Assembly (NCBI RefSeq): GCF_056746865.1
Contig: NZ_CM163382.1
DNA: 64,000 bases
Reading direction: 5' to 3' (one strand)
Numbering within the stretch: position 1 is the first letter of the stretch; the number at the start of each line of letters is the position of its first letter. The position numbers and the translations under genes were made by a program. Of the stretch, positions 22,922 through 50,199 are shown piece by piece. The notes below the pieces were generated by a model that ran no database searches, was not told the DNA's origin, and worked only from the letters and a program-made list of their open reading frames with translations.

Positions 22922-24229
22922 ATTGGATGAGCCAGTCAAGACTCAATCATTTTTTGAACAAATAGATAAATTTTGCGCAACGGCAGTGAATACAGGAAAA
23001 ATCGTTTTGAGCGATTTTATTTATCTTTGATATCGGCTTTATTAATTCATTTAATCAATATATTAGCACTGATTACAATTATACCTTTTTATTATTCTGT
23101 GTCATGATGCTTCCGTTATTAGCCTTTTATCGTCTTGTTTATATTTTTTGGGCCGGCATGATGCCGGCTTTTTTTTATGCCTTCATTAATGTGCGCCTGA
23201 TCACACCAGCCGTTTGGCGCAACAATCATTGATACCCCCTATGTTTCCGCTCAACTCATAACATATTGATATACATTTATAATTTTCATGAATATTTATA
23301 TTTAGAATTCATAATTCTGAATTATATTAAATAGATTAGAAACATTTTGAAATCTTTTAAATACATTTGTTACATGTAATCCTTAAAATAAAATGAACTT
23401 CATAGAATAGTATCCAAATGTGCTTTTTTTGGATAACGGCACTTATTGATATATTCATGAAGATTATAATCACAAGGGAATACATAATGAAAAGAAAAGT
23501 TCTGGCAATGCTGGTCCCGGCGTTATTAGTTGCTGGCGCAGCAAATGCGGCTGAAATTTACAATAAAGATGGCAATAAAGTTGATTTCTACGGCAAGATG
23601 GTTGGCGAACGCATCTGGTCAAATACTGATGATAATAACAGCGAAAACGAAGATACCTCCTATGCTCGTTTCGGTGTTAAAGGTGAAACCCAAATCACCA
23701 GCGAACTGACTGGTTTTGGTCAGTTTGAATACAACCTCGACGCCAGCAAGCCCGAAGGCTCTAATCAGGAAAAAACCCGTTTAACCTTCGCAGGTTTGAA
23801 ATATAACGAGTTAGGATCTTTCGACTATGGTCGTAACTACGGTGTTGCTTATGATGCCGCAGCTTATACCGATATGTTAGTTGAATGGGGTGGTGATTCC
23901 TGGGCTTCCGCTGACAACTTCATGAACGGTCGTACCAACGGTGTTGCAACCTACCGTAACTCTGATTTCTTTGGTCTGGTTGATGGTCTGAATTTTGCTG
24001 TGCAATATCAAGGTAAGAACAGCAATCGTGGCGTTACTAAACAAAACGGTGATGGCTATGCGTTGTCTGTAGACTACAACATCGAAGGTTTTGGTTTTGT
24101 AGGTGCATATAGCAAATCTGATCGTACTAATGAACAAGCTGGTGACGGCTACGGTGATAACGCTGAAGTGTGGTCATTAGCAGCCAAGTATGATGCAAAT
24201 AATATCTATGCAGCGGTAATGACTCCAAC

Positions 24230-32994: not shown

Positions 32995-33563
32995 GTCGAT
33001 CCCCTGACAAGGAAATGTGAACCATAGACATCAACGCGTCATAAATGTTTACGCAAGTGCACAATGCACCCTTTCCACTATCAACAAGGAGGAGCAGAAA
33101 CTGTGTAAATCGTACAATGGTAAGACTTATCAAAAATACAGGTTAATTTTGGCATTTAAACCTTTTTTACTTGTTAGTATGATACAAAGGCTTTCAAAAA
33201 AGCTGGGAAATTCAACAACTCTTGGAAATTATGGACTTTGTCCCGCGGCTTTAATCTGACGGCCGCGTTCCTTTTTTGACTCAATTATTGACCCCTTCTC
33301 TACGCAACTTCAGTTCCCACCACCAACTTTGCGGCAGTTTCATAGGATGAATGTCTAAAAGAATAATGGTGAGCGATAAGAAAACGACTGAATAACTGCA
33401 CATTTTCGCTCGAAAGCTTCCTGTCAGATCCATAGCGAATCAAGTGCTGAATGTCACAGTATCGAACAGAAAACAGTGACGATCTAACCCTTCAAGAATA
33501 TTCTACGATTGTTCTGTTTAGGAAAAGCAAGGCGGGAAGTCGGGAGATAAGTCATTGATAAAG

Positions 33564-33653
33564 TGGCGGAGAGAGGGGGATTTGAACCCCCGGTAGAGTT
33601 GCCCCTACTCCGGTTTTCGAGACCGGTCCGTTCAGCCGCTCCGGCATCTCTCC
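33564..33653 (-). tRNA. serU: tRNA-Ser (serU-type)
   Basis: Minus-strand GGAGAGATGCCGGAGCGGCTGAACGGACCGGTCTCGAAAACCGG...CTCTCCGCCA with long variable arm, 90 nt. Confidence 0.92.
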
Positions 33654-33746
33654 GTTCAGATGGTTGCCATGATGCCAGGAAATTTGGCATTTTAACAGTC
33701 CCTGTCCGTGCAATTTTGTTCAAGTGACGAGTTTGCGAGCAAAACG

Positions 33747-34544
33747 ATGATTAAGTGGCCCTGGAAAGTACAAGAATCAGCACATCAAACTGCCCTTCCC
33801 TGGCAGGAAGCACTATCGATCCCCCTTTTAACGTGTCTGACGGAACAGGAACAAAGCAAATTAGTCACTCTTGCCGAACGTTTTTTACAGCAAAAGCGGC
33901 TTGTTCCTTTACAGGGCTTTGAACTGGATTCATTAAGAAGCTGCCGGATAGCACTTCTATTTTGCCTACCCGTTCTGGAGTTAGGACTGGAATGGCTGGA
34001 TGGTTTTCATGAAGTCTTAATTTATCCTGCGCCATTTGTGGTCGATGATGAATGGGAAGACGATATCGGTCTGGTGCATAACCAACGTATTGTTCAGTCA
34101 GGTCAGAGCTGGCAGCAAGGGCCTATCGTTTTGAACTGGTTGGATATACAAGATTCTTTTGATGCTTCTGGTTTTAACCTGATTATTCATGAAGTCGCTC
34201 ATAAGCTGGACACCCGTAACGGCGATCGCGCCAGCGGAGTTCCCTTTATTCCGTTGCGTGAGGTTGCTGGCTGGGAACACGATCTTCATGCTGCAATGAA
34301 CAACATTCAGGAAGAAATCGAATTGGTTGGCGAGAATGCGGCGAGCATTGATGCTTATGCTGCCAGTGATCCTGCTGAATGTTTTGCCGTACTTTCTGAA
34401 TATTTCTTTAGCGCCCCAGAACTTTTTGCTCCTCGTTTCCCTTCATTGTGGCAACGTTTCTGCCAATTTTATCAACAAGATCCTTTGCAGAGACTGCATC
34501 GCACTAATGATACAGACTCGTTTTCGGCGACGAATGTTCATTAA
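33747..34544 (+). CDS. mtfA: Mlc-titration factor MtfA (YeeI) peptidase
   Basis: 265-aa product from [11 protein letters not shown]; HExxH motif IHEVAHK. Confidence 0.9.
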
Positions 34545-34644
34545 TTAACAACTTTGCAGATTAATTAACCAATTGAAATGACTTATGAAATTTAGTGTTG
34601 ACAGACAAGGTACCGCTAAGTAATATGCGCCCCGTTCACACGAT

Positions 34645-34720
34645 TCCTCTGTAGTTCAGTCGGTAGAACGGCGGACTGTTAATCCGTATGTCACTGGTTC
34701 GAGTCCAGTCAGAGGAGCCA
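34645..34720 (+). tRNA. asnT: tRNA-Asn (asnT)
   Basis: 76-nt TCCTCTGTAGTTCAGTCGGTAGAACGGCGGACTGTTAATCCG...GAGGAGCCA. Confidence 0.95.
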
Positions 34721-34797
34721 GATTCAAGTTTTCATGCTTATCTGTACGTTTATATTTGTTTACGATTCAGTAAGTTAGCGTGAAAATCCTTGCCGGT

Positions 34798-34869
34798 GCG
34801 TATCTGGTTTTATCTCCGCATCGGGATAATTTGGTGGTCAGATCTGGGGTCAGTTTGGTTCGATTCTGG
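34798..34869 (+). repeat. Short direct repeats (GTATCTGG / AGATCTGG / CGATTCTGG) between asnT and the integrase start; candidate integrase arm-type sites
   Basis: Three related octamers at about 34800, 34840 and 34861, plus two GGTCAG copies. Confidence 0.35.
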
Positions 34870-34882
34870 AGTGACCCCCAAA

Positions 34883-36151
34883 ATGTCTTTAAACGATTCT
34901 AAAATCCGCAAGTTAAAATCTTCTTCCCGTCCGGTAAAACTCTCCGACTCTCACGGTCTGTATCTGCTCGTCAATCCGGGCGGTTCGCGCATCTGGTATC
35001 TCAAATATCGTTTCAACGGAAAAGAATCCAGAGTCAGTCTTGGCGCATACCCGCTGGTCTCACTGGCAGAAGCCAGGCAACAGCGCGACGGTATCCGCAA
35101 GTTACTGGCGCAGAATATCAACCCGGCGCAGCAGCGCATGGCAGAGAAAGCCGCCTGCTCCCCTGAAAAGTGCTTTAAAGCGGTGGCGGTGGCGCTGGCC
35201 TGGCACAAAACCAACAAAAAATGGTCGGCTGATTATGCCGCCCGTATTCTCGCCAGTATGGAAAACCATATCTTCCCGGCGGTTGGTCATTTGCCCGTTG
35301 CCAAACTTAAAACGCAGGATTTCACTGCCCTGCTGAGGGTTATTGAGGATAAGGGCTTTCTGGAAGTCGCGTCCCGCACGCGGCAGCAACTCAGCAACAT
35401 CATGCGCTATGCCGTATAGCAGGGGCTTACCGAAAGCAATCCGGCGCAGCATCTGGATGGCGTTGTCTCCTCCCCCGTAAAGAATCACTACCCCGCGTTA
35501 CCGCTGGAGCGGTTGTCCGAACTGCTTGGCCGCATCGGTGACTATCAGCAGGGCCGGGAGTTAACCCGGCTGGCGGAGGTGCTGACACTGCACCTGTTCA
35601 TCCGTTCCAGCGAACTGCGTTTCGCCCGCTGGAGCGAGATCGATTTCAGGCACAAAATCTGGACCATCCCCGCCACCCGCGAGGCCATCGACAAAGTTCG
35701 GTTTTCGGGGCGTGGCGCAAAAATGCGTACTCCGCATATCGTACCGCTCTCCCGCCAGGCGATTGCCCTTCTGAAACAGATACAGGAGCTTTCCGGCCAT
35801 CTGGATCTGGTGTTTCCCGGCGATCATAATCCGTACAAGCCAATGAGCGAAAACACAACCAACCGGGCGCTGCGCCTGATGGGGTATGACACGAAAACTG
35901 AAATCTGCGGGCATGGACTCAGGGCAATGGCCTGTAGCGCCCTGGTGGAGTCGGACCTGTGGTCACGCGATACGGTGGAGCGGCAAATGAGCCACCAGGA
36001 GCGCAACAGCGTGCGGGCGGCATATGTGCATAAAGCAGAGCATCTGGAGGCCAGAAAGGCCATGATGCAGTGGTGGTCGGATTATCTGGATGTGTGCCGC
36101 GAGGGGTATGTTGCGCCGTACATTTATGCCCGGCAGCATAAGGCAGCCTGA
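34883..36151 (+). pseudogene. P4-type tyrosine integrase at asnT, interrupted by a single in-frame TAG at 35417..35419
   Basis: ORFs 34790..35419 and 35513..36151 share one frame and are separated only by TAG; N-terminal SLNDSKIRKLK arm-binding-type domain; C-terminal catalytic region. Confidence 0.85.
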
Positions 36152-36186
36152 ATCAGAAATAGCGTAAATCATTAAAACCGGAAAAG

Positions 36187-36217
36187 CAGATCCTGATTGA
36201 CCGGGATCTGTTTTTTT
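36187..36217 (+). terminator. Rho-independent terminator after the integrase gene
   Basis: CAGATCC...GGGATCTG hairpin followed by TTTTTTT. Confidence 0.7.
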
Positions 36218-36320
36218 GTATTGAGAGGTATTGTCGCTGTTTTTGTTATTATTAATTGGGAAGCACCGAAAATTATTCCAGTAGAATATTTGCAGTCGAT
36301 TGCCTATTAATAAATGCATT

Positions 36321-36660
36321 ATTGATAGATAATTACCTTCTGTGATTTGCCTGCAAATCACAGAAGATGAAAACCTATCAATACGGGATATTTTCACGAA
36401 AATACAAATTAATACTCCAGAATATCTGCACCAGAATATCTCCTGACCCTATACTCTGAAACCTGTAAGAACTGCATCAGATATTCAGAAACCAGACAGA
36501 TATAAGCCTGAAATTATTTGGCGTCCAATGATTTCAGGCGAAACCTATCAATGCATCTGTTTTCAACAGGCAGCCACCTTCCGTGATTCACATGTTAATC
36601 ATGGAAGGTGAAAAGCTATCAATAATCGACATTTCCACGGAATTACCACTTAATACATCC
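36321..36660. repeat. Array of three related modules, each a hairpin (palindrome) followed by a conserved box GAAA(A)(C/G)CTATCAAT-N5-a(t/c)aTTT(t/c)CA(c/a); plus one inverted box copy
   Basis: Palindromes 36337..36366 (perfect 14-bp arms), 36506..36539, 36575..36610; CTATCAAT at 36375, 36545, 36616; inverted ATTGATAG at 36321; no ORF. Confidence 0.6.
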
Positions 36661-37461
36661 CCAAAAATGCGCCATAAAATACCGGACAATCTTTCCTGAT
36701 ACAGATTATCACTGCACCAGCTATACGGAGACAAAATAATCTGCACCCGTCCTGGATAATCTGCTATCTGCGCCAGCGTCCCGCCGCTCTACCTGTTCAG
36801 TGCTGCGCCAGTACCTGGCCCTTTAGTTTTTGGCCCTTTCAGGTCAGGCGCTGTTCCCCTTATCGCCCCCTTAACCTTTATGACCCTTTCCCTTTCTGGC
36901 GCAGCCAGTTTATTTGGAAATGCTCCATGACAGTCTGCACCAGACTGTATTTTCACCACAGGATAACAATCACAAAGTGCAAAAAATAACATGAAGCACC
37001 GAAGATTCTTAATTCATATGAAGCAGGTTATTATGCCAAAAACCGTCGCAGCATTTTTATAAAATCATGAGGCATCCTGAGACCATATAATATATGTCAC
37101 AGGATACGGAAAAACACAGAGAGAATTATTCAGATATAACCCTGTGCCAGAATTAATGTGATGCCCCGGTGAATTTACATTTTAAAATTTTCCCAGCCCT
37201 GTAGTATTGGTAAAAATGATTGAAACACCTGTTATTAACAGAGAGCATTTCGTGTGATTACAGGGGTAATCACTATAATATTCCGACAAACTATATTGGT
37301 TAAGCAGGAGAATCTGATCTGTTGATATTTATTCGTCATGCTGTAACGATATTTTCACAATATAAACCCGTTCGCCCCCTGCGCCAGATCCGGAACATAG
37401 GGTACGATAAATCGCTGTCGTTACGCAGTAACGTACTATTTTGCGACATTCATGAATTCAG

Positions 37462-38346
37462 TTATTCCTCCCTCCAGCGGTATCCATACACCTGTTTCAC
37501 CCAGCGACCGCGACCGTCGCCATGACCCAGATCCGTCGCCGTCAGCGCCAGGGATTCCTTTTCGCTGAATCCCTGCGCCAGATAATGGCGGATCGCATCC
37601 TGCGCCCAGGCATAGCGCAGGGAGTGAGGGGAAAATTCCCCCTTCAGCCCCACCTTAATGACCTGTTTGTGCCAGCTCTCCAGCGCCATTTTGAGATCAG
37701 GCTTGTCGATCAGCCTGCCATTGTGTCGATCCGCGACCAGTAAGGCCTTTTCCAGAGCCTTCCTGACTGCGCCAGTATCCAGAACTGTCGTATGGCGGGG
37801 ACGCCCACCTTTGGTGCCAAACACCACTTTCAGCCGGTTTTCCCCGCGCTCAATGGCTTTCAGCCACGTTTTCAGCGACAGTGAACTCTGTACCGCTTCC
37901 TGCGAGCGTAACCCCATCAGTCGCGCGATCTCCAGCGCCGCAGCCAGCCCCGCATCCTCAGCGCGGGCTTTCTCCATAACCTGCTGGTAATGTTCCGGCG
38001 TAATGGCGCGGCGCGTACCGTTGCGTGAAGCGCCCGACACTCCCAGCGCCTTATTGGTTAGGCGTGGATGCTCCACCACCTGCCTGCGTCCAGCCTGTCT
38101 CAGCACGGCCTGCAGTGCCGCCATGTCGTTTTGCAGCGTTCGTAAACCAATATCCTGCTCCAGCCGTTCCTCAATGTAGCATTCGATATGGCGAACCCTG
38201 ATCTGCTCCACCCGCTGGATCTGGATATTCAGCGCCCGTAAATGTTCACTGAACCGTTTTGTAATATGGATACGGTCATTCACTGTTTTAAAGCTGCCGC
38301 CCGCTTTCTTCGCCAGCGCCTTCATTTCACTGCTTAATTTACTCAT
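37462..38346 (-). CDS. Tyrosine-type site-specific recombinase / integrase-family protein (294 aa), second recombinase of the asnT islet
   Basis: C-terminal HSLRYAWA...DLGHGDGRGRWVKQVYGY resembles the H-x-x-R ... catalytic-Y region of tyrosine recombinases; AGGGGA Shine-Dalgarno upstream of ATG. Confidence 0.6.
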   Translation of the reverse strand: MSKLSSEMKALAKKAGGSFKTVNDRIHITKRFSEHLRALNIQIQRVEQIRVRHIECYIEERLEQDIGLRTLQNDMAALQAVLRQAGRRQVVEHPRLTNKALGVSGASRNGTRRAITPEHYQQVMEKARAEDAGLAAALEIARLMGLRSQEAVQSSLSLKTWLKAIERGENRLKVVFGTKGGRPRHTTVLDTGAVRKALEKALLVADRHNGRLIDKPDLKMALESWHKQVIKVGLKGEFSPHSLRYAWAQDAIRHYLAQGFSEKESLALTATDLGHGDGRGRWVKQVYGYRWREE

Positions 38347-38935
38347 GAATCCCCTGCAACATAAACAAACAGTCTCCGGCGTGTGCTGTTTGGCTGCGCC
38401 AGAACGATACCTTCACGCCGGAGTGGCTGGTTGTTGAGGTTTAGGGAGTTTCAGGCTGTACGCGGTACAGACTGCCTGACGAAGCAGGGGTGTCTCCGGA
38501 GCATCGTGCCCCCCCTCGGTATCGATCTTTTTCTCCTTTACTCTGAGCTGACAGCGGCCCCAAAGGGCATGTCAGACGGCGGAAATATGGCGCAGGCCGG
38601 GACTGGCGCGGCTTGCGGCGGTATGTTGTGCAGCGTCACTTTGCCCTGTCGCTGGCGCGACCAGAGTGACACCTCGTCTGGTGCAGAGGGTAAACGTTGC
38701 GTTTCTGGTGCAGGGTGACGGTCACGCGGCAGCAAAGCCTGCTGTCTTTGCAGGCCGCAGCCCGTCAATGTAAGGCGCGGGTTGTCAGCAGAAGATAAAA
38801 CCCGGCAAAGCCAGAGTGCCAGCCCGTAAAGCCGGGTAAGCATGGCTACGAAGAAGAGAAGTGGAGAAAAAATAAATGACCGACAAATCTTATGCGGGAT
38901 GGGAATTAAACTACGCCGCTTAACTGCGGGTAACG

Positions 38936-41900
38936 GTGACCTTCACCATGCCACAGGACGTTGCGGCAAACTTTACCCTCGAAAATAACGGCATTGCCAT
39001 CACCCAAGCCAATGGGGAAGCGCATGTCACGCTGAAAGGTAAAAAAGCGGGTACGCATACGGTTACCGCAACGCTGGGTAATAACAATACCAGTGATTCG
39101 CAGCCGGTAACGTTTGTGGCGGACAAAACCTCGGCTCAGGTTGTCCTGCAGATGTCAAAAGATGAGATCACAGGTAATGGCGTCGATAACGCAACGCTAA
39201 CTGCAACGGTTAAAGATCAGTTCGACAATGAGGTGAATAATCTTCCGGTAACATTCAGCTCAGCCTCTTCAGGACTCACCCTGACCCCGGGAGTAAGTAA
39301 TACCAATGAGTCTGGCATCGCGCAGGCCACTCTCGCAGGCGTTGCCTTTGGTGAGCAGACGGTCACTGCATCACTGGCTAATAATGGTGCCAGCGACAAC
39401 AAAACTGTGCATTTTATTGGCGACACAGCAGCGGCAAAAATTATCGAGTTGACGCCTGTCCCAGACAGCATAATCGCCGGTACCCCGCAGAACAGCTCCG
39501 GCAGCGTCATCACCGCCACAGTCGTTGATAATAATGGCTTTCCGGTGAAAGGTGTGACTGTGAACTTCACCAGCAGAACAAACTCTGCCGAAATGACGAA
39601 TGGCGGCCAAGCCGTAACGAACGAACAGGGTAAGGCTACCGTCACTTATACCAATACCCGCTCCTCGATAGAATCAGGAGCGAGACCGCATACCGTTGAG
39701 GCCAGTCTGGAAAATGGTAGCTCCACGCTTAGCACATCAATTAATGTCAACGCTGATGCGTCTACGGCACATCTCACCTTGCTACAGGCACTTTTTGATA
39801 CAGTCTCCGCAGGCGACACTACCAATCTGTATATTGAGGTGAAGGATAATTACGGCAACGGTGTACCCCAGCAGGAGGTAACCCTCAGAGTATCACCAAG
39901 TGAAGGCGTGACCCCCAGTAATAACGCTATATATACTACCAACCACGACGGCAATTTTTACGCAAGCTTTACCGCTACAAAAGCCGGGGTTTATCAAGTG
40001 ACGGCAACCCTCGAAAATGGCGATTCGATGCAACAAACAGTGACCTATGTGCCGAACGTAGCGAATGCTGAAATCACGCTGGCAGCCTCGAAGGATCCGG
40101 TGATTGCCGACAATAACGATATCACGACACTAACAGCAACAGTCGCTGATACAGAGGGCAATGCGATAGCCAACACTGAGGTAACATTTACTCTGCCGGA
40201 AGATGTGAGGGCGAACTTCACGCTGAGCGATGGCGGTAAAGCGGTTACTGATGCCGATGGCAAAGCGAAAGTCACGCTGAAAGGTACAAAAGCAGGCGCT
40301 CATACTGTTACAGCATCGATGGCTGGCGGTAAGAGTGAGCAGTTGGTGGTGAACTTTATTGCGGATACACTCACTGCGCAGGTTAATCTTAACGTTACCG
40401 AGGACAATTTTATCGCTAATAACGTCGGGATGACCAGGCTGCAGGCAACAGTGACTGATGGAAACGGCAACCCGTTAGCCAATGAGGCGGTGACATTCAC
40501 GCTACCGGCAGATGTGAGCGCAAGCTTTACTCTCGGACAAGGCGGTTCCGCCATTACTGATATCAACGGCAAGGCTGAAGTTACACTGAGCGGTACAAAA
40601 TCCGGCACCTACCCCGTGACAGTTAGCGTGAACAATTATGGTGTCAGTGATACGAAACAGGTGACTTTGATTGCCGATGCTGGTACCGCAAAACTAGCCT
40701 CATTAACCTCTGTATACTCTTTCGTCGTCAGCACGACCGAGGGCGCGACCATGACTGCAAGCGTCACTGACGCTAACGGCAACCCGGTAGAAGGCATAAA
40801 AGTTAATTTCCGCGGAACCTCCGTCACGCTAAGCAGCACCAGCGTTGAAACGGATGATCGGGGTTTCGCTGAAATTCTTGTGACAAGCACCGAGGTCGGA
40901 CTGAAAACAGTTTCAGCCTCTCTGGCAGATAAACCTACTGAAGTCATCTCGCGATTACTGAATGCAAAAGCAGATATTAATTCTGCAACGATTACCAGTC
41001 TGGAGATACCTGAAGGTCAGGTCATGGTCGCACAAGACGTAGCAGTTAAAGCTCACGTCAACGACCAGTTTGGCAATCCGATTCTTAATGAATCTGTAAC
41101 ATTCAGTGCAGAGCCACCAGAGCACATGACCATCAGCCAAAATATTGTCTCTACTGATACGCATGGTATAGCCGAGGTCACTATGACGCCCGAAAGAAAC
41201 GGTTCGTATATGGTGAAAGCATCCCTGGCGAATGGATCCTCTTATGAGAAGGATCTGGTGGTAATCGATTAAAAACTGACACTCTCGGCGTCCAGCCCGC
41301 TTATCGGTGTCAATTCCCCAACAGGTGCAACTCTGACGGCAACGCTAACTTCTGCAAATGGCACTCCAGTGGAGGGTCAGGTCATCAACTTTAGCGTAAC
41401 GCCAGAAGGTGCGACGTTAAGTGGCGGAAAAGTGGGAACCAACTCTTCAGGTCAGGCTCCAGTCGTTCTGACCAGCAATAAAGTCGGTACATATACGGTG
41501 ACTGCATCGTTCCATAACGGCGTAACAATACAGACACAGACAACCGTGAAAGTCACTGGCAACTCAAGCACCGCCCATGTTGCTAGCTTTATCGCTGATC
41601 CATCGACTATCGCCGCCACCAACAGTGATTTAAGTACCTTAAAGGCAACGGTTGAGGATGGCAGTGGTAACCTGATCGAAGGTCTCACTGTGTACTTCGC
41701 CTTAAAAAGCGGCTCTGCCACATTAACGTCATTAACAGCGGTGACAGATCAAAACGGAATCGCGACAACAAGCGTGAGAGGAGCGATAACGGGGAGCGTC
41801 ACGGTAAGCGCAGTCACGACCGCTGGTGGAATGCAAACAGTAGATATAACGCTGGTGGCAGGCCCGGCAGACGCCTCAAAGTCAGTCCTTAAGAACAATC

Positions 41901-42000
41901 GGTCATCATTGAAAGGAGACTTTACCGATAGTGCTGAGCTACATCTTGTTCTGCACGATATATCAGGCAATCCGATCAAAGTTTCTGAAGGGCTGGAATT
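38936..42000 (+). repeat. Tandem coding repeats of about 300 nt (bacterial Ig-like domains) within the yeeJ remnant
   Basis: Recurrent nucleotide and protein motifs (GTCACGCTGAAAGGTA..., TVTATL/TVTASM) at roughly 100-aa spacing. Confidence 0.6.
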
Positions 42001-42775
42001 TGTGCAATCAGGTACTAACGTGCCCTATATGAAAATTAGCGCAATTGATTACAGTCAAAATATCAACGGTGATTACAAAGCCACCATTACAGGCGGCGGA
42101 GAGGGTATCGCAACGCTGATCCCTGTATTGAATGGTGTTCATCAAGCTGGTCTGAGTACCACAATACAATTCACTCGCGCAGAAGACAAAATAATGAGCG
42201 GTACAGTATCAGTCAATGGTACTGACCTACCGACAACTACATTCCCTTCGCAGGGGTTCACCGGGGCGTATTATCAGTTGAATAATGACAACTTTGCCCC
42301 AGGAAAAACGGCGGCTGATTATGAGTTTTCAAGCTCTGCCTCCTGGGTCGATGTTGATGCTACCGGTAAAGTGACATTTAAAAATGTCGGCAGCAATTGG
42401 GAAAGGATTACGGCGACGCCAAAATCAGGAGGCCCTAGCTATGTATACGAAATCCGTGTGAAGAGTTGGTGGGTGAACTCCGGCGATGCTTTCATGATAT
42501 ACAGCCTTGCTGAAAATTTTTGCAGTAGCAATGGCTACACACTTCCCCGTGCAGACCATTTAAACCATAGTCGTTCCCGAGGCATCGGGTCACTGTACAG
42601 TGAATGGGGAGATATGGGGCATTACACGACTGAAGCTGGTTTTCAATCAAATATGTATTGGTCATCTAGTCCCGCAAACTCAAGCGAACAATACGTAGTT
42701 TCCCTGGCAACAGGTGATCAAAGCGTATTTGAAAAGCTTGGGTTTGCTTATGCGACATGTGATAAAAACCTGTGA
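38936..42775 (+). pseudogene. yeeJ: 3' portion of an inverse-autotransporter adhesin gene (yeeJ-like; Big_1 Ig-like repeats and C-terminal lectin-like domain), 5' half absent, with in-frame TAA at 41270..41272
   Basis: ORFs 38936..41272 and 41369..42775 share one frame, separated by one TAA; repeated VTFTLP...FTL...G.A.VTLKG.KAG.HTVTA units; homology begins abruptly at about 38924 with no signal peptide or beta-barrel region. Confidence 0.8.
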
Positions 42776-42796
42776 TTTTCCGTTATAATTTCTTAA

Positions 42797-42826
42797 AGAG
42801 TGCTCCATTCGGAGCACTCTTTTTTA
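42797..42826. terminator. Bidirectional rho-independent terminator between yeeJ and yeeL
   Basis: GAGTGCTCC-ATTC-GGAGCACTC hairpin followed by TTTTTT. Confidence 0.75.
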
Positions 42827-43036
42827 CATTCCCTCTATAGAGCTTGCCCTTCTCTCACAGAAAATGAATAAATAAAACTGCTGCACCGCAAGAATCGCGT
42901 TCGATGTGACTATGATCGTATCCGGTGAGTACAGCTTTGATCCAAAGGCTGGTTTTCTGTGATGATTGACCAGCCTCAGAGTATTGATGACACCACCGTT
43001 CATAACAGATCGGCATTACTATGCATAAGTACTGTC

Positions 43037-43191
43037 TCATATTCTCGCCAAAACACTTTTTAATGCCTTTGCGAATTCATCCAGACTTATATTGTCAATT
43101 TTTTGCCCAACGACGACTGACTCCGAAACATCGGCCATTGCGGGCCATCGCGTTTTGTAATCAGCATAAATTGCAACAACGGGAGTATTAT
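43037..43191 (-). pseudogene. yeeL: Displaced 3' end of yeeL (about 51 codons) left of the IS2 insertion
   Basis: Minus-strand frame continues the yeeL frame once IS2 plus one 5-bp duplication (1336 bp) is removed. Confidence 0.55.
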
Positions 43192-43202
43192 TGGATTTGC
43201 CC

Positions 43203-44108
43203 CTATATTTCCAGACACCTGTTATCACTTAACCCATTACTGGCCCGCTGCCGTAGATATTCCCGTGGCGAGCGATAACCCAGTGCACTATGCGGATGCC
43301 ATTCGTTATAATGCTCGAACGCCTCTGCAAGGTTCTTTGCTGCCGTTAACCCGTCTGGTTTAGGCATGATACTGATGTAGTCACGCTTTATCGTTTTCAC
43401 GAAGCTCTCTGCTATGCCGTTACTCTCCGGACTCCGCACCGCCGTGTTCTTCGGTTCAAGCCCCAACATCCGGGCAAACTGCCGTGTTTCATTAGCCCGG
43501 TAGCATGAACCATTATCCGTCAGCCACTCTACTGGAGACGCCGGAAGCTCGTTGCCGAAGCGGCGTTCCACCGCTCCCAGCATTACGTCCTGTACTGTTT
43601 CACTGTCGAAGCCGCCCGTAGTGACTGCCCAGTGCAGTGCCTCACGGTCACAGCAGTCCAGCGCGAACGTGACTCGCAGTTTTTCTCCGTTATCACAGCG
43701 GAACTCGAACCCGTCAGAGCACCATCGTTGATTGCTTTCTTTCACGGCCACTTTGCCAGTATGTGCCCGTTTCGATGGCGGTACAGCGGTTTTTCGCTCA
43801 AGCAACAGCGCATTCTGGCGCATGATCCGGTAAACACGTTTGGCATTGATCGCAGGCATACCATCAAGTTCGGCCTGTCTGCGAAGCAGCGCCCATACCC
43901 GACGATAACCATACGTGGGCAGCTCTCCGATAACATGGTGTATACGGAGAAGCACATCCGTATCATCTGAGTGACGGCTGCGGCGACCATCTTTCCAGTC
44001 ATCGGTTCGTCTGAGAATGACGTGCAACTGCGCACGCGACACCCGGAGACAACGGCTGACTAAGCTTACTCCCCATCCCCGGGCAATAAGGGCGCGTGCG
44101 CTATCCAC
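43203..44108 (-). CDS. insD: IS2 transposase OrfB (InsD)
   Basis: 301-aa ORF with DDE-transposase sequence. Confidence 0.93.
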
Positions 44109-44431
44109 TTTTTTGCACGCCCGTATTCAACGGCTTCTTTAAGGAGTTCATTTTCCATCGTTTTTTTGCCGAGCAGGCGCTGGAGTTCTTTAATCTGCTT
44201 CATGGCAGCAGCAAGTTCAGAGGCAGGAACGACCTGCTCTCCTGCGGCCACAGCAGTAAGACTTCCCTCCTGGTATTGCTTGCGCCAGAGAAATAACTGG
44301 CTGGCTGCCACACCGTGTTGCCGGGCAACAAGGGAGACCGTCATTCCCGGTTCAAAACTCTGCTGAACAATAGCGATCTTTTCCTGTGTAGTACGCCGTC
44401 TGCGTTTCTCCGGTCCTAAGACATCAATCAT
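44066..44431 (-). CDS. insC: IS2 OrfA (InsC)
   Basis: 121-aa product from [18 protein letters not shown]; overlaps insD for -1 frameshifting. Confidence 0.93.
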
Positions 44432-44522
44432 CTGCTCTCCAATGACTAGTCTAAAAACTAGTATTAAGACTATCACTTATTTAAGTGATATTGGTTGTCT
44501 GGAGATTCAGGGGGCCAGTCTA

Positions 44523-50123: not shown

Positions 50124-50199
50124 TGGCTCCTCTGACTGGACTCGAACCAGTGACATACGGATTAACAGTCCGCCGTTCTACCGACTGAACTACAGAGGA
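50124..50199 (-). tRNA. asnW: tRNA-Asn (asnW)
   Basis: Reverse complement identical to the asnT sequence. Confidence 0.95.

Follow-up and report, generated by a model that had tools for sequence, protein, structure and literature searches.

What is the DNA that separates asnT from yeeJ in this Escherichia coli chromosome, and by what means could an element at this site once have moved? The window that we analyzed is a 64,000-nt stretch of GCF_056746865.1 (contig NZ_CM163382.1) covering the mtfA-asnT-yeeJ region; positions refer to this window, and those of the K-12 reference to MG1655 locus L003 in its own numbering. The islet proper extends from 34726 to about 38838 (~4.1 kb), where it stands in for ~300 bp of the K-12 asnT-yeeJ spacer. 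We think it likely that the islet represents the left arm of what was once an intact integrative mobilizable element (IME) in the 3′ end of asnT, now reduced to a remnant with a putative relaxase module. The islet and its borders comprise the following features:

34645-34720, plus strand: asnT, tRNA-Asn(GTT) (ARAGORN, Rfam tRNA).
34705-34724: core of the left attachment site (attL), the asnT 3′ end plus 4 nt, CCAGTCAGAGGAGCCA followed by GATT.
34883-36151, plus strand: P4-family tyrosine integrase pseudogene (translation; NCBIfam NF007246 matches both halves).
36152-37461, no strand: AT-rich spacer between the two convergent genes (composition, repeats, comparison with the relative WW2).
37462-38346, minus strand: intact gene for a 294-aa tyrosine-recombinase-like protein, a candidate MOB_M/MpsA-type atypical relaxase (Pfam PF12834 and PF12835).
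38401-38530, minus strand: EFASI RNA motif (Rfam RF02957, cmscan), 54 nt upstream of the small gene and on the same strand.
38531-38834, minus strand: further conserved non-coding block, a candidate origin of transfer (oriT)/promoter region (19-sequence alignment, RNAalifold).
38835-38838, no strand: island/chromosome deletion junction with GGTA microhomology (comparison with the relative 64EVA and K-12).
38839-38932, plus strand: native 5′ end of yeeJ (98% to K-12 2932-3029).
38928-38932, no strand: separate internal yeeJ deletion junction, with 3142 bp lost, a 5-bp overlap, and a frameshift.
38933-42775, plus strand: 3′ part of the yeeJ pseudogene with its Ig-like repeats (96% to K-12 6167-10442).

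The mobilization part of this reading depends on the small gene, which is currently annotated as “integrase domain-containing protein” and which, like the EFASI motif (38401-38530), is absent from the initial annotation of this DNA. Its product matches the full Pfam model Integrase_1 (PF12835; 6.7e-60) and Phage_int_SAM_2 (PF12834; 2.9e-39), the only NCBIfam match is a weak one to XerC (TIGR02224; 1.8e-5), and a PDB sequence search gives zero matches. The ratio of nonsynonymous to synonymous substitution rates (dN/dS) is 0.14-0.19, a signal of past purifying selection on the small gene. Residues R147, K179, H241, R244, H275, and Y287 are invariant among 18 homologs, so that the catalytic R, K, H-x-x-R, and H and the nucleophilic Y looked for in the relaxase family are conserved, and they align with the catalytic positions of MpsA (R162, H247, R250, LGHG, and Y319). 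MpsA, its partner MpsB, and the GC-rich 125-bp oriT adjoining mpsA were described, with the catalytic residues of MpsA named, by Kiss et al. (PMC6414798), and PF12835 serves as the signature of MpsA-type relaxases in the classification of genomic islands (PMC10484663).

We retrieved mpsA of Salmonella genomic island 1 (SGI1) from a Salmonella fragment in the plasmid collection, located by the published oriT(SGI1) sequence; the same sequence finds no SGI1 in complete E. coli genomes. The fragment yields mpsA (321 aa, ending ...VTNSYLG) and mpsB, and the top Pfam match of SGI1 MpsA is again PF12835 (1.1e-10). BLASTP aligns the small protein to MpsA with 28% identity over 194 aa (E 1e-6), spanning GLR(S/F)xE and GTKGGRxR, and hhalign of a profile of the 18 homologs against MpsA gives E 6.8e-5 with a probability of 63%. 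The shared PF12835 match and the two alignments together place the small protein in the MpsA family by sequence, at a distant level. It is therefore probably an MpsA/MobK/TcpM-type (MOB_M) relaxase, and no second integrase. According to a 2026 preprint (bioRxiv 10.64898/2026.01.13.699239), no relaxases are commoner in chromosomes than those of MOB_M, 96% of which have an integrase beside them, and annotation frequently labels them integrases; none of its MOB_M seed accessions is among the cluster members listed.

Upstream of the small gene lies EFASI, named for “Enterobacteriaceae, Frequently Around STAXI and Integrases” and described as standing upstream of an integrase gene (description quoted in PMC12370729, which also reports its detection by reverse transcription PCR in vesicles of another strain). 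The islet copy spans the full model (positions 1-133) at 95.7 bits (gathering score, 51.2), and EFASI occupies the same position ahead of every homolog checked; no STAXI motif is found near it in the window or in two larger relatives. An alignment of the 500 nt upstream of the small gene from 19 loci in nine genera reveals ~450 nt of non-coding DNA that is GC-rich, rich in inverted repeats, and conserved with long invariant runs; the conserved region (38347-38834) is about three times the length of the Rfam model and continues ~300 nt beyond it. It includes an invariant inverted repeat, GCGTCACTT...AAGTGACGC, at 38633-38673, whose inner stem covaries; direct repeats of CTGCACCAG at about 38705-38713 and 38680-38688; a near-invariant block at 38716-38764, upstream of EFASI; and a CTGACA...TGTCAG hairpin at about 38550-38576. 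RNAalifold predicts 94 pairs, and at 11 of these compensatory changes occur (UA to GC in 7 sequences at columns 236/257 is one case). Invariant U-G pairs also occur on the strand of the small gene (for example, at alignment columns 106/142). The islet keeps this whole region as far as the deletion breakpoint.

By its place and its features, the EFASI region fits, as an analogy, the layout of SGI1, in which oriT (125 bp, GC-rich, with inverted repeats), an essential small RNA (sRNA) encoded between oriT and mpsA (PMC9299015), and mpsA follow one another in one reading direction. On this parallel, EFASI is probably part of the transfer origin region of the putative relaxase. Because the annotated “integrase” is itself probably a relaxase, the role suggested for EFASI is one in DNA transfer, not that of a free-standing trans-acting sRNA.

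The integration part of the module is read from the other end of the islet. Alignment to the unoccupied asnT-yeeJ junction of K-12 gives three blocks, K-12 906-2630 to window 33001-34725 (99.4%), K-12 2932-3029 to 38835-38932 (98%), and K-12 6167-10442 to 38928-43201 (96%), and thus two separate rearrangements, the exchange of spacer for islet and the loss of 3142 bp from yeeJ. The ~300-bp K-12 spacer has no counterpart anywhere in the window. GC content departs from that of the flanks, at 55-60% in the two islet genes and 37-45% in the spacer between them. The base directly after the tRNA is G here and at other occupied sites, and A in K-12 and at unoccupied asnU/V/W. The initial annotation, right in outline here, took the islet for the remnant of an integrative element, placed a P4-type integrase some 160 nt from asnT, and saw no siderophore or other cargo genes. 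The gap is 162 nt (ARAGORN, NCBIfam, and translation), and the islet indeed holds no such cargo. A second copy of the asnT 3′ end was also said to be missing downstream, and a search of the 64-kb window (16 or 23 nt, with as many as 3 mismatches allowed) matches only the four asn tRNA genes, the others being those that ARAGORN places at 50124, 51948, and 54357. With no right attachment site (attR) in the window and relatives that have one, the window holds a shortened member of the family, not an intact one: it shows the insertion at an asn tRNA 3′ end and the adjoining P4-family integrase expected of an asn-tRNA island, and lacks the flanking attL/attR direct repeats and a functional integrase.

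The P4-family integrase frame (420 codons), which had been read as a gene, is present but broken. An in-frame TAG at codon 179 (Q179*, 35417-35419) and a 6-bp duplication make it a pseudogene, in agreement with the RefSeq annotation of the identical strain EC17CM13 (pseudogene, “internal stop”). Homologous integrases have the domains Arm-DNA-bind_3, Phage_int_M, and Phage_integrase; alleles are intact in O145, KY175, and A33, and WW2 has a different stop (Q370*), which indicates that the inactivations are independent. Programmed read-through or recoding of the TAG is discarded, since other alleles are intact or stopped elsewhere. Against intact alleles the dN/dS is 0.04-0.13, and the codon comparison again indicates past purifying selection.

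Complete relatives are 6-18 kb long, are inserted at tRNA-Asn or tRNA-Phe, and are bounded by ~20-bp direct repeats of the tRNA 3′ end, the intact ones carrying CCAGTCAGAGGAGCCA(A/G)ATT at both ends. Their shared backbone consists of a tRNA-adjoining P4-family integrase, a 290-294-aa PF12834/PF12835 protein, and, directly upstream of that protein, ~450 nt of conserved structured non-coding DNA with EFASI. A species-wide scan and the fetched loci together gave >20 places, and in every one of them that has the PF12835 gene a P4-type integrase gene or pseudogene lies 0.2-2.6 kb from it. The pairing of tRNA, P4-type integrase, and PF12835 protein occurs in Escherichia, Salmonella, Klebsiella, Serratia, Cedecea, Erwinia, Lonsdalea, Pseudocitrobacter, and an unclassified Enterobacteriaceae isolate, and where the sequence reaches the tRNA gene this is tRNA-Asn, or tRNA-Phe in Klebsiella, Serratia, Cedecea, Erwinia, and S. 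arizonae. Cargo varies and includes Rhs and type VI secretion system (T6SS) genes, toxin-antitoxin genes (MazEF/HigA), Kiwa (KwaAB), DarTG (DarT-NADAR), Avs (Avs3a), AbiE, and NACHT with radical SAM, and never ybt. In loci L010, L011/L012, L008, L013, L004, L006, and L026, the cargo is mostly of anti-phage or competition type.

One undeleted relative, 64EVA, carries a 10.4-kb island at asnT that is 98.8% identical over the islet and has both att repeats, in the order asnT, integrase, small gene, three small open reading frames (ORFs), Rhs core protein, CCAGTCAGAGGAGCCAAATTC, K-12 spacer, and intact yeeJ start. Both repeats also bound an 18-kb element at asnW in WW2 (HigA, ash, C4/isrK RNAs, Rhs, NACHT, and radical SAM), a 6.3-kb element in A33, an 11-kb element in Salmonella (methyltransferase/DUF87 and Kiwa), and a 10-kb element in Lonsdalea (DarT-NADAR); the attR repeat is found in Escherichia whittamii as well. 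In O145:H28 the backbone is followed by a T6SS/Rhs region, and the cargo of KY175 is MazEF and Avs3a. Near-identical undeleted islands with attR, 64EVA among them, bear out the view of the islet as the remnant of an integrative element. The further claim that it had been reduced to its integration module plus cis elements holds in part: it is the deletion remnant of an asn-tRNA element, as 64EVA shows, and it retains more than that module, namely a second intact gene for a probable relaxase.

Comparison with 64EVA also resolves how the islet ends. The window reads GCCGGGTA joined to AGCATGGCT (starting AGCATGG), undeleted 64EVA reads GCCGGGTA joined to TCTGGTGCAG, and K-12 reads GAAGGTA joined to AGCATGGCT, which together identify a deletion at GGTA microhomology. 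It took ~6.3 kb of island (the cargo), attR, and ~300 bp of native spacer, and ended 4-7 bp before the older ATG of yeeJ, so that both yeeJ start codons are kept, the one at 38842 from the older annotation and the one at 38899 from the current annotation of K-12. The internal yeeJ deletion is a different event. It removed K-12 3030-6171, joining K-12 3029 to 6167/6172, and its exact junction is found in only 3 of 20,395 records; Ch1 and CH4796 have the identical islet and island junction and yet a full-length yeeJ frame, and the 3142-bp deletion is accordingly later and independent. The initial annotation had the islet end abruptly inside the yeeJ repeats at about 38924 and had a single deletion take the 5′ half of yeeJ along with the island. 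Neither holds: K-12 homology resumes at 38835, the yeeJ starts are present, and the single boundary came from merging two junctions (38834-38838 and 38928-38932) into one. RefSeq labels the 3′ part of yeeJ an Ig-like domain pseudogene. A premature TAA at 41270-41272 is already carried by the full-length frames of Ch1 and CH4796, in which the islet is present and the 3142-bp deletion absent, suggesting stepwise decay of yeeJ after loss of its promoter region.

The island breakpoint at nucleotide 38838 (directly after GCCGGGTA) is common to three deletion variants, those of window/Ch1, D2, and BA22372; the corresponding positions in other loci are L025 about 10519, L027 about 11434, and L026 9099. 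The islet is joined to K-12 3031 in D2 and to K-12 about 4524 in BA22372, junctions that slippage between CGGGTA or TAAGC repeats could produce from the Ch1 type, and in undeleted islands the breakpoint position is followed by a third CTGGTGCAG repeat. Identity of the islet to the window is 95.7% in BA22372, against 98.8% in undeleted 64EVA. The shared breakpoint could reflect one founding deletion or a recurrent break site.

Several observations weigh against reading the islet as a remnant with a relaxase module. MpsA resembles the small protein only distantly (28% identity across the N-terminal two thirds; hhalign probability, 63%). Unlike MpsA as reported, the small protein has a core-binding-like domain of its own at the N terminus (PF12834), and its gene has no neighbor for an MpsB-like partner. 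With its own N-terminal domain and no MpsB partner, it looks like a complete XerC/D-sized recombinase. The Rfam EFASI model finds no match in the oriT-mpsA region of SGI1, so that the oriT/sRNA parallel is one of position only, and the upstream region has no sequence similarity to oriT(SGI1); lacking sequence and covariance-model similarity, the parallel is an analogy, not demonstrated homology. A search of the 300 bp retained on the upstream side of EFASI gave no sigma-70-like promoter. In addition, with three junction variants at one island breakpoint, a single founding deletion is an incomplete explanation. An alternative is that the small protein truly acts in site-specific recombination, as a second integrase, as a resolvase of tandem arrays, or as an invertase of the palindromic spacer or a cargo block, making the islet an integration module with two recombinases. 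The complete R-K-H-R-H-Y set, the core-binding-like domain, the XerC/D-like size with a weak XerC match, and the long inverted repeats in the spacer would all suit it, as would the occurrence of the cassette in both orientations relative to the P4 integrase across loci and the existence of tandem arrays in need of resolving (L015). The two orientations, however, follow deep integrase clades (52-54% vs. 57-100% identity), zero inverted segments occur among 548 E. coli genomes with matches, and from locus to locus the region upstream of the gene is conserved but not the spacer with its palindromes. The att repeats have the form expected of the P4-type integrase, and among PF12835 members the relaxase MpsA is the only characterized one identified. 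We judge a recombinase role unlikely.

The initial annotation had likened the configuration to the yersiniabactin High Pathogenicity Island (HPI), and the islet might be a remnant of that island cut down to its integrase end, given the shared tRNA target, a P4-family integrase oriented and spaced alike, and the many E. coli that carry the HPI at asnT. We find this highly improbable: the integrase shares only ~72% (nt) and 69.5% (aa) identity with the HPI integrase adjoining ybtS, the islet contains no ybt, irp, or fyuA sequence, its relatives never carry ybt, and near-identical complete islands bear Rhs cargo and the PF12835 gene, whereas in the one HPI-positive locus examined ybtS directly follows the integrase and no PF12835 gene adjoins. 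Counts in 5426 complete E. coli genomes are in keeping with this separation. An integrase at least 90% identical occurs in about 479 genomes and a further 2123 have only a ~72%-identical one; a sampled example of the latter adjoins ybtS, identifying it as the HPI integrase. The same counts bear on whether the arrangement might be ancestral, with K-12 a derived, deleted state, a finding that the initial annotation had named as refuting its own view. The absence of a counterpart to the ~300-bp K-12 spacer from the window would speak for this. The K-12-type empty spacer is nevertheless present in 2979/5426 genomes (55%), against 383 (~7%) with at least 80% of the islet interior (36160-38834) at 87-100% identity; in 64EVA the K-12 spacer directly follows attR, the signature of an insertion; the same backbone occurs at asnW and, in other species, at tRNA-Phe; and the GC content is atypical. 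An ancestral origin is thus scarcely credible, and the islet is a third, minority state of asnT, neither ancestral nor HPI.

Since the small protein belongs to PF12835 alongside MpsA and shares its catalytic residues, the reading that best suits the islet is that of a decayed IME of which the integration-plus-mobilization module survives. In the intact element, the P4-type integrase would have carried out excision, after which the circuit would pass to nicking and mobilization through the mating pore of a helper conjugative element, the EFASI-containing upstream region serving as origin of transfer and/or as an RNA cofactor of the small protein, by analogy with the oriT, sgm-sRNA, and mpsA of SGI1. 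Decay began with the GGTA deletion, which reached from a point just beyond the conserved upstream block to a point 4-7 bp short of the yeeJ ATG and took with it the cargo, attR, and the promoter region of yeeJ. A nonsense codon then arose in the integrase, and the promoterless yeeJ decayed through the TAA codon and, after it, the 3142-bp internal deletion. What is left is attL, a dead integrase, the spacer, and, together with its EFASI region, the intact gene for a putative MOB_M relaxase; since attR is gone and the integrase is dead, the element cannot excise and the islet is immobile.

This kind of element is already known and the present decayed copy is ordinary, as are its consequences for the source strain, in which the element is immobile and without cargo. 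Islet formation removed the yeeJ promoter region, and this adhesin gene has since decayed, so the locus documents stepwise erosion of an island through microhomology deletions at the asnT hotspot. Of modest added value is the proposed link between EFASI, PF12835 “integrases,” and the conjugative mobilization of small tRNA-Asn/Phe islands. The label “integrase domain-containing protein” probably misnames a relaxase, and it recurs in hundreds of Enterobacterales genomes; were the relaxase reading and that of EFASI as oriT both true, many small tRNA-linked defence/Rhs islands would be reclassified as conjugatively mobilizable. More tentatively, EFASI and the upstream hairpin/repeat block may constitute the oriT and/or an essential RNA cofactor of a large MOB_M clade that mobilizes defence/Rhs islands at tRNA-Asn/Phe in Enterobacterales, and locked remnants may support transfer of the Hfr kind; taken jointly, we regard these proposals as rather doubtful. 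If they are true, the relaxase-plus-oriT module of such remnants is locked in the chromosome and could, with a helper, start Hfr-like transfer of neighboring DNA, which would involve the asn-tRNA island hotspot, host to the HPI and the pks island. The common breakpoint of the three deletion variants at the edge of the module would then reflect activity or selection there.

The spacer between the two islet genes (~1.3 kb) is junk-like: it is poorly conserved, with lengths of 200-1300 bp across loci, and contains a ~240-bp tandem duplication (about 36270-36492 and 36512-36733), of which WW2 has a single unit, and palindromes at 36309-36394 and 36575-36610. Phase-variable inversion between its 52-nt inverted repeats is discarded, as the E. 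coli matches show no opposite-strand pieces and the spacer is not conserved between loci, and in-place flipping of the recombinase cassette likewise, as both orientations are seen only between deeply diverged element lineages; the two gene orders track deep integrase clades, not close relatives. Small ORFs of 67, 52, 111, and 101 aa in the spacer and upstream region are rejected as coding, being frameshifted in relatives, with conservation on both strands. Among the relatives, E. whittamii (L015 10001-20112) has two family elements, one per gene order, in tandem at one asn tRNA, with a hybrid att repeat between them (13463-13477). WW2 (L004) and SWHEFF_69 (L007) lack the asnU-cbl-nac-asnV segment and have yeeO between two asn tRNA genes, which suggests that copies of the asn tRNA have recombined. 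Next to tRNA-Ser serU, strains O145:H28, 64EVA, and TUM9812 have the remnant of a lambdoid prophage integrase, which is absent from the window. Elsewhere in the window, the sRNA genes DsrA (14598-14684, minus strand) and RseX (23086-23175, plus strand) are at their expected chromosomal positions. Downstream of yeeJ, an IS2 at 43202-44522 (TnpA 44069-44476 and TnpB 43206-44108, both minus strand; NCBIfam NF006928 and NF006918) interrupts a yeeL-like glycosyltransferase-family-9 gene exactly where K-12 homology breaks, and this identity disposes of the extra 1.3 kb as a tandem glycosyltransferase paralog.

Set beside known systems, the islet shares with P4-like satellites and CP4-type remnants a P4-family integrase, tRNA targeting, and, in its relatives, defence cargo, and some larger relatives have C4/isrK-type RNAs and an ash-family gene; the replication (alpha), sid/delta/psu, and cos functions of P4, in contrast, are seen neither in the relatives examined nor in the window. 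The Yersinia HPI and the pks island also target asn tRNA 3′ ends with a P4-family integrase ~160 nt downstream that is transcribed away from the tRNA, the right-hand repeat is often lost in E. coli, and yeeJ is damaged beside asnT. They differ in their integrase (~70% aa identity) and in the siderophore or polyketide genes that the islet lacks, whereas the islet has the PF12835/EFASI module and relatives with Rhs or defence cargo. The EFASI match is typical of its family in being full-length, high-scoring, and upstream of an “integrase” gene, and departs from it in having no STAXI nearby, in a conserved region that extends beyond the Rfam model, and in that its “integrase” is likely to be a relaxase. 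The SGI1 mobilization module (oriT, sgm-sRNA, mpsA, mpsB) differs from the islet in the ~28% identity of its MpsA, in having mpsB where the islet has a fused N-terminal DNA-binding-like domain, and in integrating at trmE, whereas the islet family integrates at tRNA-Asn/Phe through a P4-type integrase; the islet is moreover shortened and immobile, and neither by sequence nor by Rfam does its upstream region resemble oriT(SGI1) or sgm-sRNA. The two are alike in a PF12835 protein with the same catalytic residues near a separate integrase, in a GC-rich, inverted-repeat-rich non-coding region with a structured RNA element directly upstream on the same strand, and, as with MOB_M IMEs generally, in forming small chromosomal islands with accessory cargo.

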